From NCBI RefSeq assembly GCF_003334305.1, contig NZ_QOWS01000020.1: DNA of 64,000 nucleotides. The stretch is one strand, 5' to 3'. The position numbers were made by a program, and so were the translations under genes. Shown here in pieces: positions 21,327 through 61,079 of this stretch; the stretch's first letter is position 1, and every line of letters starts with the position of its first letter. The DNA comes from Escherichia coli (GTDB taxonomy: Bacteria > Pseudomonadota > Gammaproteobacteria > Enterobacterales > Enterobacteriaceae). Under the pieces are notes generated by a model. The model saw only the letters and a program-made list of their open reading frames with translations, was not told where the DNA came from and did no database searches.

Positions 21327-21424
21327 GCCAGATGCGGCGTAAACGCCTTATCCGGCCTACAAATTCTTCCAAATTCAATATATTGCAGAAATCATGTAGG
21401 CCTGATAAGCGTAGCGCATCAGGC
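21327..21424. repeat. REP/BIME element between ysaA and avtA
   Basis: gccagatgcggcgtaaacgccttatccggcctac ... gtaggcctgataagcgtagcgcatcaggc read directly. Confidence 0.75.
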
Positions 21425-37902: not shown

Positions 37903-39972
37903 ATGTCTGAGAAAACTTTTCTGGTGGAAATCGGCACTGAAGAGCTGCCACCAAAAGCACTGCGCAGCCTGGCTGAGTCCTTTGCTGCGAATTTTACTGC
38001 GGAGCTGGATAACGCTGGCCTCGCACACGGCACCGTTCAATGGTTTGCTGCTCCGCGTCGTCTGGCGCTGAAAGTAGCTAACCTGGCGGAAGCGCAACCG
38101 GATCGTGAAATCGAAAAACGCGGCCCGGCGATTGCCCAGGCGTTCGACGCTGAAGGCAAACCGAGCAAAGCGGCAGAAGGTTGGGCGCGTGGTTGCGGTA
38201 TTACCGTTGACCAGGCTGAGCGTCTGACTACCGATAAAGGCGAATGGCTGCTGTATCGCGCCCATGTGAAGGGCGAAAGCACCGAAGCACTGCTGCCGAA
38301 TATGGTTGCGACTTCTCTGGCGAAACTGCCGATCCCGAAACTGATGCGTTGGGGCGCAAGCGACGTGCACTTCGTGCGTCCGGTGCACACCGTGACCCTG
38401 CTGCTGGGCGACAAAGTCATTCCGGCAACCATTCTGGGCATTCAGTCCGATCGCGTGATTCGCGGCCACCGCTTTATGGGCGAACCGGAATTCACCATCG
38501 ACAACGCCGATCAGTATCCGGAAATTCTGCGTGAGCGCGGGAAAGTCATCGCCGATTACGAAGAACGTAAAGCGAAGATTAAAGCCGATGCCGAAGAAGC
38601 AGCGCGTAAGATTGGCGGTAACGCTGACTTAAGCGAAAGCCTGCTGGAAGAAGTGGCTTCGCTGGTGGAGTGGCCGGTCGTTCTGACCGCAAAATTCGAA
38701 GAGAAATTCCTCGCGGTGCCGGCTGAAGCGCTGGTTTACACCATGAAAGGTGACCAGAAATACTTCCCGGTGTATGCGAACGACGGCAAACTGCTGCCGA
38801 ACTTTATCTTCGTTGCCAACATCGAATCGAAAGATCCGCAGCAGATTATCTCCGGTAACGAGAAAGTCGTTCGTCCGCGTCTGGCGGATGCCGAGTTCTT
38901 CTTCAACACCGACCGTAAAAAACGTCTGGAAGATAACCTGCCGCGCCTGCAAACCGTGCTGTTCCAGCAACAGCTGGGTACGCTGCGTGACAAAACTGAC
39001 CGCATCCAGGCGCTGGCTGGCTGGATTGCTGAACAGATTGGCGCTGACGTTAACCACGCAACCCGTGCGGGCCTGCTGTCTAAGTGTGACCTGATGACCA
39101 ACATGGTCTTCGAGTTCACCGACACCCAGGGCGTTATGGGGATGCACTATGCGCGTCACGATGGCGAAGCGGAAGATGTCGCGGTGGCGCTGAATGAGCA
39201 GTATCAGCCGCGCTTTGCCGGTGATGACCTGCCGTCTAACCCGGTAGCCTGTGCGCTGGCGATTGCTGACAAGATGGATACTCTGGCGGGTATCTTCGGT
39301 ATCGGCCAGCATCCGAAAGGCGACAAAGACCCGTTTGCGCTGCGTCGTGCCGCACTTGGCGTGCTGCGAATTATCGTTGAGAAGAACCTCAACCTTGATC
39401 TGCAAACGCTGACCGAAGAAGCGGTGCGTCTGTATGGCGATAAGCTGACTAATGCCAACGTAGTTGATGATGTTATCGACTTTATGCTCGGTCGCTTCCG
39501 CGCCTGGTATCAGGACGAAGGTTATACCGTTGACACCATCCAGGCGGTACTGGCGCGTCGTCCGACTCGTCCGGCTGATTTCGATGCCCGTATGAAAGCG
39601 GTATCGCATTTCCGTACCCTGGATGCAGCTGCTGCACTGGCGGCGGCGAACAAACGTGTATCTAACATTCTGGCGAAATCTGACGAAGTGCTGAGCGACC
39701 GCGTGAATGCCTCTACCCTGAAAGAGCCGGAAGAAATTAAACTGGCGATGCAGGTTGTGGTGCTACGTGACAAGCTGGAGCCGTACTTTGCGGAAGGTCG
39801 TTACCAGGATGCGCTGGTCGAACTGGCAGAGCTGCGTGAGCCGGTTGATGCTTTCTTCGATAAAGTGATGGTCATGGTTGATGACAAAGAATTGCGTCTC
39901 AACCGTCTGACCATGCTGGAGAAACTGCGCGAACTGTTCCTGCGCGTTGCGGATATTTCGCTGTTGCAGTAA
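37903..39972 (+). CDS. glyS: glycine--tRNA ligase beta subunit
   Basis: 689 aa; 9 nt downstream of glyQ. Confidence 0.95.
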
Positions 39973-40016: not shown

Positions 40017-40189
40017 TTATCGCTAAATAATACAGCAACCTTTAATAATCTTCTGCTGAATAAAGATTATCTCATATATTAATTTTATGAGGTTTTTTTA
40101 GGATTATATCAAGGAGAAGAAACAAACTTATTAAGCTAGAATAGCCACGGGTGCTTGAGACTGTTTGTCTCAGGTATTCACCGAAAGGC

Positions 40190-40260
40190 AGACAGAGAAA
40201 AGCCCCACCTGACTATAAATCAAAGTGAGGCTACCCTATGCCTGAACACCATAAGGTTAG
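40190..40260 (-). ncRNA. sokA: presumptive Sok-type antisense RNA of the hokA locus (approximate position, opposite the mok start / hok leader)
   Basis: Placement inferred from hok/sok family architecture only; ends not determined from sequence. Confidence 0.25.
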
Positions 40261-40534
40261 CCTCTTACTCGTTGGAAATCAACACAGGGGGCTGGGAATG
40301 CCGCAGAAATATAGATTACTTTCTTTAATAGTGATTTGTTTCACGCTTTTATTTTTCACCTGGATGATAAGAGATTCACTGTGTGAATTGCATATTAAAC
40401 AGGGGAGTTATGAGCTGGCGGCATTTTTAGCCTGCAATTTAAAAGAGTTAGAGTCTTCGGCGGGAAGTTATTCCCGCCTTTCTTACGGCGTTGCGCATTC
40501 TCATTGCACCCAAATTTATTTTTCACAAAAATAA
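40238..40534 (+). CDS. mokA: mok-type upstream reading frame, in frame with and encompassing hokA
   Basis: ATG 40238 with SD gtgagg 8 nt upstream; uninterrupted frame through hokA. Confidence 0.5.
   Translation: MPEHHKVSLLLVGNQHRGLGMPQKYRLLSLIVICFTLLFFTWMIRDSLCELHIKQGSYELAAFLACNLKELESSAGSYSRLSYGVAHSHCTQIYFSQK
40298..40534 (+). CDS. hokA: Hok-family type I toxin; frame open for 78 codons, with no stop at the usual ~50-codon position
   Basis: MPQKYRLLSLIVICFTLLFFTWMIRDSLCELHIKQGSYELAAFLAC... from ATG 40298; first in-frame stop TAA 40532-40534. Confidence 0.7.
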   Translation: MPQKYRLLSLIVICFTLLFFTWMIRDSLCELHIKQGSYELAAFLACNLKELESSAGSYSRLSYGVAHSHCTQIYFSQK

Positions 40535-40580: not shown

Positions 40581-40612
40581 ATAAAAAAATCCCCGCCAAA
40601 TGGCAGGGATCT
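40581..40612 (-). terminator. cspA intrinsic terminator (hairpin plus T-tract on minus strand)
   Basis: Minus strand reads TCCCTGCCatttGGCGGGGAttttttt just 3' of cspA stop. Confidence 0.65.
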
Positions 40613-40637
40613 TAGATTCTGTGCTTTTAAGCAGAGA

Positions 40638-40850
40638 TTACAGGCTGGTTACGTTACCAGCTGCCGGGCCTTTAGCGCCGCTTTCGATGGTGAAGGACAC
40701 TTTCTGACCTTCGTCCAGAGATTTGTAACCATCGTTCTGGATAGCAGAGAAGTGTACGAACACGTCTTTAGAGCCATCGTCAGGAGTGATGAAGCCGAAG
40801 CCTTTGTCAGCGTTGAACCATTTTACGATACCAGTCATTTTACCGGACAT
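40638..40850 (-). CDS. cspA: major cold-shock protein CspA
   Basis: 70 aa [21 protein letters not shown]... with RNP1/RNP2 motifs. Confidence 0.95.
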
Positions 40851-41046
40851 AGTGTATTACCTTTAATAATTAAGTGTGCCTTTCGGCGATATGGCGTGCT
40901 TTACAGATTTTGAAGCGTTAAAGGAATGTGCACTACGAGGGGTATCAACGATAACTCTTGAAGGGACTTGCCTTACTACACTGCTTTAATGGTCTGTACG
41001 TCAAACCGTTGATGTGCATTAAGCCACGCATTGGCGGGTGATGCAA
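40851..41046 (-). promoter_or_regulatory. cspA: cspA promoter (-35 TTGCAT at 41041-41046, -10 CTTAAT at 41018-41023, AT-rich UP region upstream) and 159-nt 5' UTR with cold-box / thermosensor leader
   Basis: Minus-strand sequence ...TTGCATcacccgccaatgcgtggCTTAATgcacatcaACGGTTTGACGTACAGACC... matches the known cspA promoter and leader. Confidence 0.85.
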
Positions 41047-52206: not shown

Positions 52207-52283
<77 letters not shown>

Positions 52284-52374: not shown

Positions 52375-52461
52375 TAGGCCTGATAAGACGCGTCAGCGTC
52401 GCATCAGGCAACGGCACCGCACTTATTGTCGGATGCGGCGTGAACGCCTTATTCGACCTAC
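52375..52461. repeat. REP/BIME element between proK and dppA
   Basis: gtaggcctgataagacgcgtcagcgtcgcatcaggc ... gtcggatgcggcgtgaacgccttattcgacctac read directly. Confidence 0.7.
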
Positions 52462-60013: not shown

Positions 60014-60294
60014 AAAGTCCTGTCCAGAAAGAAGTCGGCCTCGCAAAAATGAATAAACCCAGATTCTCTTGCGCAACAGGTGGAGAAGTCGAATACGCAG
60101 TATGTAAAAAATGAGGCAACAGATTCACTGGGGAGGTCGCGAGGAGGCGCAATTCTACAAAATTGCGCATTTCACTACCAGTCTGGAGTCAGCCCGGATA
60201 TGAACTGCAACTATTGCAAATTAAGAAATTAAGCTGGAAGGCATCACGCAATGAGGAAGATTGCCGGGTGCTGACAGTAAAAAGCAATCGTAAA

Positions 60295-60365
60295 ATCAGC
60301 GGCAAGCCGGAAGGGTTCCGGTGAGGCGCAATGTTGCGGGGGCTTTATCCCTGGTGGCATTGGTT
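60295..60365 (-). ncRNA. rdl: presumptive Rdl-type cis-antisense RNA of LDR copy 1 (approximate)
   Basis: Position inferred from published ldr/rdl architecture (antisense to ldr mRNA 5' leader); minus-strand hairpin CCGGAAcccTTCCGG followed by T-rich run lies here. Confidence 0.25.
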
Positions 60366-60488
60366 GCTGGAGAGAGAAAACCCCCGCACGTTGCAGGTAT
60401 GCACCTGACAACATAACGGGGGCTAATCTTGAACCTAAACAACTCAAGAATAGCCGCGAAACGTTGTCATTACAACACAGGCGGCTAT

Positions 60489-60596
60489 ATGACGCTCGCA
60501 GAGCTGGGCATGGCCTTCTGGCATGATTTAGCGGCTCCGGTCATTGCTGGCATTCTTGCCAGTATGATCGTGAACTGGCTGAACAAGCGGAAGTAA
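60489..60596 (+). CDS. ldr: Ldr-family type I toxin peptide, 35 aa
   Basis: ATG 60489 to TAA 60594-60596: MTLAELGMAFWHDLAAPVIAGILASMIVNWLNKRK. Confidence 0.85.
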   Translation: MTLAELGMAFWHDLAAPVIAGILASMIVNWLNKRK

Positions 60597-60678: not shown

Positions 60679-60777
60679 GTAAGAAAAATGCAACGGTTGC
60701 AAGCGGATAATATTCTGCGGAATGCGCAGCACAGAGTGAGTAAGTGATGGATTTCGGAACAGAAAAACAGTCGTAGA

Positions 60778-60848
60778 ATCAGCGGCAAGCCGGAAAGGTT
60801 CCGGTAAGGCGCAATGTTGCGGGGGCTTTATCCCTGGTGGCATTGGTT
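60778..60848 (-). ncRNA. rdl: presumptive Rdl-type cis-antisense RNA of LDR copy 2 (approximate)
   Basis: Same reasoning as copy 1. Confidence 0.25.
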
Positions 60849-60971
60849 GCTGGAGAGAGAAAACCCCCGCACGTTGCAGGTATGCACCTGACAACATAAC
60901 GGGGGCTAATCTTGAACCTAAACAACTCAAGAATAGCCGCGAAACGTTGTCATTACAACACAGGCGGCTAT

Positions 60972-61079
60972 ATGACGCTCGCAGAGCTGGGCATGGCCTT
61001 CTGGCATGATTTAGCGGCTCCGGTCATTGCTGGCATTCTTGCCAGTATGATCGTGAACTGGCTGAACAAGCGGAAGTAA
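60972..61079 (+). CDS. ldr: Ldr-family type I toxin peptide, 35 aa (identical to copy 1)
   Basis: ATG 60972 to TAA 61077-61079; identical 108-nt ORF. Confidence 0.85.
   Translation: MTLAELGMAFWHDLAAPVIAGILASMIVNWLNKRK

Follow-up and report, generated by a model that had tools for sequence, protein, structure and literature searches.

In the window, by which we mean the whole 64,000-nucleotide stretch of Escherichia coli DNA analyzed here, the type I toxin gene hokA has lost its stop codon through a single base change. The stop-loss was confirmed. The reading that we favor, at a probability of about three in four, is that of a detoxified allele: a stop-loss of single origin that would survive as a tolerated or mildly favored pseudogene and would represent one of many routes by which hokA is disabled. 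As a probable loss-of-function allele, it is unexceptional and already on record for this well-known type I toxin gene, and the predicted non-stop fate of its message would add only a mildly new angle.

The hokA stop codon and its loss

Direct translation from the ATG at 40298 gave a frame of 78 codons, MPQKY...NLKE-LESSAGSYSRLSYGVAHSHCTQIYFSQK, closed by TAA at 40532-40534, as a preliminary description of this DNA had stated. From the in-frame ATG at 40238, the frame had 98 codons and ended at the same TAA. The first 50 codons (40298..40447, + strand) form the canonical HokA coding sequence. Residues 1 to 50 matched NCBIfam NF007290, the HokA equivalog, with 130 bits (cutoff, 89) and covered its 50-position profile end to end; Hok/Gef-family membership was also found through PF01848, which is assigned to near-identical proteins (96 to 99% identity). 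Codon 51 (40448..40450, + strand) is TTA (Leu), and in other alleles it is a TAA stop. When the locus was aligned with that of strain 2014C-3061, the A-to-T change at 40449, which converts this TAA into TTA, was the sole difference across 511 nt.

The preliminary description had given a reference HokA ending in KLKE and had proposed a change from TAA to TTA relative to it. Alignment with reference and natural-isolate hokA agreed with this on both points, a stop being present at codon 51 in K-12 and in the nearest alleles. HokA of K-12 has 50 residues and ends in ...ACKLKE*, i.e., ...KQESYELAAFLACKLKE*. The common non-K-12 allele, which is the closest natural one, also encodes 50 residues, ends in ...ACNLKE*, i.e., ...KQGSYELAAFLACNLKE*, and has TAA at codon 51. 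Orthologous HokA proteins from Klebsiella, Pseudocitrobacter, and Rahnella had 50 residues in all cases. The window allele thus departs from the pattern of a toxin of about 50 residues in which a stop directly follows the conserved C-terminal segment. The preliminary description had counted two substitutions in addition to the stop-loss. Both are present, as E35G and K47N, but they are features of the usual non-K-12 allele and have no link to the stop-loss; a common event was ruled out because the exact TAA 55-mer, representing the common allele, occurs in 1565 genomes.

The frequency of the allele was determined with a query of 55 nt centered on the SNP, so that each 28-nt megablast seed was forced to span it. 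The TTA 55-mer was found with 100% identity in 141 of 5426 complete E. coli genomes (~2.6%), including those of E. coli W, KO11FL, and LY180. The TAA 55-mer with identical flanks matched 1863 genomes, 1565 of them exactly, and the hokA locus was found in 5418 of the 5426. In public protein collections, the exact 78-aa translation was present on 86 contigs, under the name "toxic polypeptide, small [E. coli W]" (ADT77169.1 and others), and the exact 98-aa translation was present on at least 1000. In each of the eight carriers whose records were read, the PGAP annotation of hokA is that of a pseudogene, "missing C-terminus." A sequencing or assembly error producing a false sense codon was ruled out and has a negligible probability, since the identical allele is shared by 141 independent complete genomes from many laboratories and its translation is found on hundreds of contigs.

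The surroundings of the SNP were compared in a small sample of 7 carriers and 7 non-carriers. All seven carriers matched the window without difference from ~40221 to at least 41970, and four to five of them (M8, RM10466, O113:H21 FWSEC0010, and A28 can be named) were identical to it over 5.3 kb. In three others, ATCC 43896, W, and D6, the only departures from the window were located more than 1.5 kb downstream or consisted of an IS150 insertion at ~40221. Among the TAA genomes, that of E2865 was the nearest and differed at 40449 and at three further sites. Multiple origins of the SNP found no support in this comparison of 7 carriers with 7 non-carriers, and the presence of one local haplotype in all eight sampled carriers fits a single origin. 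A parsimonious reading of these alignments would be one mutational origin followed by recombination, with a second hit by IS150 in W and D6. The allele would then stem from a single event on a common haplotype and would since have been maintained, or have spread, as a pseudogene that is tolerated or mildly favored. The identity of sampled carriers to the window over 5.3 kb leaves no accumulated decay by which relaxed selection could be proven independently.

Setting and RNA elements of the locus

The gene order in this part of the E. coli chromosome is glyS (37903-39972, + strand), the hokA locus, cspA (40638-40850, - strand), yiaG, and yiaF, with an Rfam match to the cspA thermoregulator at 40583-41010 (- strand). 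Between glyS and cspA lies a chromosomal hokA/sokA type I toxin-antitoxin locus that is free of insertion sequences and in which promoter, tac, ucb, mokA, sokA, terminal hairpin, and fbi are all present. The glyS-hokA synteny reaches Klebsiella, and Pseudocitrobacter has two tandem hok genes upstream of its cspA homologue. The cspA gene is named "cspE" in most RefSeq/PGAP records, and the product name of WP_000014594.1 alternates between CspA and CspE; this is an inconsistency of annotation and not a feature of the sequence.

A -10 box, TAGAAT (40137..40142, + strand), was recognized by its conservation across genera 6 nt upstream of the mRNA 5' end. In the alignment, TAGAAT followed by GGGTGCTTGAG was kept in the hokA orthologues of Klebsiella, Pseudocitrobacter, and Rahnella, and an R1-type locus had an equal promoter layout, TATGAT...GGCGCTTGAGG. 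A simple promoter scan found no -35 box and called neither the hokA nor the sokA promoter. The predicted full-length hokA mRNA (40149..40513, + strand) extends from 5' GGGUGCUUGAG to a point slightly 3' of fbi, according to Rfam and folding; we infer the position of its 3' end by analogy with R1. The leader at 40149-40300 (+ strand) matched Rfam RF01794 ("sok") with 124.9 bits (gathering score, 59). This family is named as the sok antitoxin and nevertheless falls on the hok sense strand, covering the leader up to the hok AUG; the match marks the Sok target and not the Sok gene.

In the minimum free energy (MFE) fold of the full-length RNA, the 5' end was paired to fbi and the 3' end, with z values of -7.6 to -9.0 relative to shuffled sequences. 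The tac element, GGGUGCUU (40149..40156, + strand), was predicted to pair with fbi (UCUCA..GCACCC, 40499..40511, + strand) in the full-length RNA and with ucb (AAGCCCC, 40200-40206, + strand) in folds of the truncated RNA. Alignment of hokA mRNAs of Escherichia, Klebsiella, and Pseudocitrobacter showed the tac-fbi pairs to be invariant in all eight orthologues. Just downstream of the toxin coding sequence, a GC-rich terminal stem-loop followed by UUUCUU (40459..40478, + strand) forms a terminator-like site, the counterpart of the 3' stem-loop of the truncated R1 hok mRNA; three of its eight pairs have compensatory double changes across genera. By the folds and the alignment, the toxin mRNA thus has both the tac/fbi pairing of its ends and a 3'-terminal stem-loop. 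The fbi element and a U-tract 3' of it (40515-40523, + strand) together mark where the hokA mRNA is predicted to end.

The mokA SD sequence (GTGAGG, 40225-40230, with GAGG at 40227-40230) lies 7 nt upstream of the mokA ATG (40238-40240), the whole element spanning 40225..40240 on the + strand. Direct reading therefore agreed with the preliminary description, which had noted an in-frame mokA start at 40238 with a good SD. The mok frame overlaps hok and has its own SD; for the intact allele, an in-frame Mok-Hok protein of 70 aa was found on at least 1000 contigs. The sokA antisense RNA gene (40192..40250, - strand) covers the mokA SD and start codon. Its 3' end is fixed at 40192, and its 5' end, like its promoter, is only inferred, the coordinate given being approximate. 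The 35-nt sokA remnant annotated in MG1655 (b4614) corresponds exactly to 40192-40226 (- strand), a region that is uninterrupted in the window; this mapping and the RF01794 match place a predicted antisense Sok RNA over the mok initiation region. A passage of PMC3562002 cites a published sokA target length of 52 bp. All regulatory elements other than the stop codon are intact in the window.

Two known systems were used for comparison. The hok/sok (parB) locus of plasmid R1 shares the gene family PF01848 with hokA and resembles it in tac/fbi end pairing, ucb, mok, the stem-loop right after the stop, and the antisense Sok over the mok start. In the R1-type locus that we retrieved, stop, hairpin, and fbi followed one another as in hokA, with ~8 nt from the stop to a GC hairpin with a U run. 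The R1 system is plasmid-borne, whereas hokA of the window is chromosomal. The mok frame is out of frame with hok in R1, whereas mokA is in frame with hokA, so that one stop serves both hokA frames. After a stop-loss, the next stop lies between the truncated and full-length 3' ends in R1 but beyond fbi in hokA. The second system, K-12 hokA (b4455) with the mokA and sokA pseudogenes, occupies the same position between glyS and cspA, and its HokA is 96% identical over 50 aa. By analogy with R1 for the window allele, both loci would be inactivated but in different ways: K-12 has kept the TAA and has IS150 in the leader, and the window has an intact leader and has lost the stop. The proteins of E. 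coli W, KO11FL, and LY180 and the RefSeq hokA pseudogenes have the same 78-aa translation and TTA 55-mer as the window; E. coli W differs by the extra IS150 in its leader at ~40221, which the window lacks.

Probable consequences for the toxin and its message

The change at 40449 turns the UAA shared by hokA and the in-frame mokA into UUA, and ribosomes on the hokA message would then run past codon 51 into the structured 3' UTR. The read-through tail (40451..40534, + strand) comprises 27 sense codons plus TAA. No NCBIfam family matched past residue 50 of the 78-codon product, i.e., within the 28-residue tail, and the homologues that covered the tail were all other read-through, deletion, or frameshift alleles of hokA. 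Its length is also unremarkable. When composition-matched sequences were shuffled, 17% reached 27 or more further sense codons, and a frame of unusual length was thus ruled out. The 28-residue tail is the translation of a conserved, structured 3' UTR, crossing the terminal stem-loop and the fbi element, as shown by invariant tac-fbi pairing and by compensatory pairs in the hairpin across genera.

Two routes to a loss of toxicity can be proposed by analogy with R1. By the first, the C-terminal extension itself would abolish Hok activity, as it does in the plasmid R1 Hok. In R1 hok, toxicity suppressors included six substitutions that remove the stop codon and lengthen the protein by 17 aa (Le Rhun et al. 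2022, PMC9841398), and an 8-aa C-terminal FLAG tag abolishes the toxicity of R1 Hok (PMC9841398). The window allele adds 28 aa compared with the 17 aa of these suppressors, and a loss of toxicity through the extension of HokA would be expected from the R1 homologue only. By the second route, the translatable mRNA, processed at its 3' end just past the hairpin at 40459-40478, would have no in-frame stop. The truncated, translatable R1 mRNA ends at the terminal stem-loop, and mutations that weaken this stem-loop destabilize or eliminate the truncated form (PMC9841398). If the hokA mRNA is processed like that of R1 hok, the translated species would therefore be stopless and a substrate for trans-translation. 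A ribosome would reach the 3' end of the mRNA and be rescued, and its product would receive a tag and be degraded. In place of the 78-aa protein, this would yield approximately HokA(1-50)+LESSAGSYSRL followed by the degradation tag. Pedersen and Gerdes reportedly described 3' processing of hokA mRNA in 1999.

The next in-frame stop, at 40532, lies downstream of the terminal hairpin, of fbi (GCACCC, 40506-40511), and of the U-tract. Since fbi and the U-tract mark where the mRNA is predicted to end and this stop lies beyond both, cells probably do not produce the 78-aa protein, which may never exist in that form. The UAA at 40532 would be included in any transcript that extends as far as the cspA terminator (40586-40613), and from such transcripts the 78-aa product could arise. 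The preliminary description had suggested either an altered toxin or a decaying locus; the decaying locus is the better supported of the two. A stronger form of the second route holds that the stop-loss turns the toxin message into an obligatory non-stop mRNA and that HokA exists only as a tmRNA-tagged, quickly degraded peptide. We regard this as a tentative proposal with perhaps a minor share of the probability. If it were true, toxin activity would become conditional on the capacity for ribosome rescue and proteolysis, and the R1 stop-codon suppressors would gain a mechanism, the original paper having invoked a longer protein only.

It is also conceivable, but improbable, that the 78-aa HokA, or a 98-aa MokA-HokA, is made and functional, with a hydrophilic and probably periplasmic tail, and is still toxic or modified in its activity, for example, through altered oligomerization or through a third cysteine affecting disulfide chemistry. 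The frame is open, every upstream expression signal is intact, and the allele is unchanged in hosts that are diverse and come from different countries. The tail brings one extra Cys and two His, and a C29-C46 disulfide matters for the toxicity of Hok-family proteins (bioRxiv 10.1101/2025.08.07.668861). However, the tail matches no family and has a length expected by chance, its sequence is constrained as RNA structure and not as protein, and the new stop lies past the predicted mRNA 3' end. Moreover, 8 extra C-terminal residues are enough to abolish R1 Hok toxicity, R1 stop-loss mutants are suppressors, and HokA has 50 aa in Klebsiella, Pseudocitrobacter, and Rahnella alike. A detoxified allele remains the best reading, because the stop-loss and the C-terminal tag both cost R1 Hok its toxicity. 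The features of a pseudogene found here were the stop-loss, the PGAP flag, and a tail of chance-level length without homology; a loss of function would follow from R1.

The SNP could also act otherwise than through the HokA protein. The stop codon lies inside a conserved long-range helix, in which CUCUUAC(UC) at 40262-40270 pairs with (GA)GUAAGAG at 40445-40453. The 5' arm, CUCUUACUC (40262..40270, + strand), was identified from folds and alignment as pairing with the hokA stop region. The 7-bp core of this helix was kept across Escherichia, Klebsiella, and Pseudocitrobacter, and the window was the sole sequence of eight with a broken pair in it (U.U). With the SNP, the predicted energy of the helix duplex changed from -11.4 to -7.5 kcal/mol. 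In the predicted ensemble of the truncated mRNA, the probability of the helix fell from 0.65-0.98 to ~0.02 and the accessibility of the mokA SD fell from 0.33 to 0.14. On the opposite strand, a YsaE-like small ORF lies antisense to the hokA 3' end (40448..40498, - strand), with the translation MRNAVRKAGITSRRRL* and a length of 16 codons. The hokA stop triplet is codon 17 of this ORF; there the SNP changes TTA to TAA and shortens the frame from 19 to 16 codons. The length of YsaE varied by lineage: K-12 has 23 aa, as does a CDS annotated in O157, the common B1-type allele has 19, and the window has 16. Because the SNP truncates this ORF, TTA genomes lack the annotation of a small CDS ("hypothetical protein") that TAA genomes have. 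YsaE is, we presume, a product of small-protein discovery by ribosome profiling. A search of the literature for E. coli YsaE gave a sole match, an entry "ysaE-hokA" in a list of convergent overlaps (PMC12288877).

It is thus possible that the SNP affects folding, processing, or translatability by breaking the central pair of the helix, or that it matters by truncating the YsaE-like ORF. The helix is kept in all orthologues and its pair broken in the window alone, the predicted changes in duplex energy, helix probability, and SD accessibility speak in its favor, and so does the TTA-to-TAA change in the YsaE frame. The thermodynamic values are, however, predictions, with MFE states at very low ensemble frequency, and the C terminus of YsaE already differs from one lineage to another (23 versus 19 aa), which argues against constraint. 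Either effect would in any case coexist with the stop-loss, and we consider it unlikely as the main consequence of the SNP.

Other routes to hokA inactivation

Detoxification by stop-loss would not stand alone. Among the 5426 complete genomes, 2611 (~48%) had no contiguous hokA leader. In the genomes examined, IS150 was found at the leader break, at one of two sites (~40221 or ~40266) and in both orientations across lineages. In K-12, IS150 stands in place of ~40 bp (40227-40266) that include the start of mokA and the 5' portion of sokA, and the carriers W and D6 have IS150 in the leader on top of the stop-loss. Protein databases also contained independent stop-loss alleles with CAA (Q) or AAA (K) at position 51, as well as several frameshifts and truncations to 42 to 48 aa. 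An 87-aa HokA variant of Escherichia fergusonii lacks the stop and the following codon (Glu). The hokA stop sits in a perfect tandem hexamer, (AAGAGT)x2, at 40442-40453, and the E. fergusonii variant is short of exactly one unit; slippage is a plausible second route to stop-loss in the E. fergusonii form, judged from the repeat. Stop-loss would be a further way of disabling hokA in E. coli lineages beside IS150 insertion, truncation, and frameshift.

The literature describes the K-12 hok loci as inactive and K-12 HokA as toxic on overexpression, and it is cited in a preprint (bioRxiv 10.1101/2025.08.07.668861) that intact chromosomal hokA, that of E. coli C, gave no post-segregational killing. 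Because an intact chromosomal hokA was reported to lack this activity, the stop-loss may be neutral and not detoxifying.

The window allele is a natural counterpart of the hok stop-codon suppressors selected in the laboratory, and it carries little weight for biology at large. Database proteins of 78 and 98 aa that bear the name "HokA" or "small toxic polypeptide," those of the industrial strain E. coli W among them, are translations of a 3' UTR reached by read-through and should not be counted as a distinct toxin variant. The locus would offer a convenient natural test case for whether stopless type I toxin mRNAs are handled by trans-translation.

A second type I toxin-antitoxin system was seen elsewhere in the window. 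Two tandem ldrD/rdlD units (60280-60579 and 60763-61062) were 98% identical with a spacing of 483 nt; each has a 35-aa Ldr ORF, and rdlD Rfam matches were located at 60375-60440 and 60858-60923 (- strand). K-12 presumably has a single ldrD at the corresponding locus. The other RNA features, unrelated to hokA, were tRNA-Pro(CGG) at 52207-52283 (+ strand), an naRNA4 (CssrE) element at 52377-52458 (- strand), and a match to the ES036 sRNA at 21361-21403 (+ strand).
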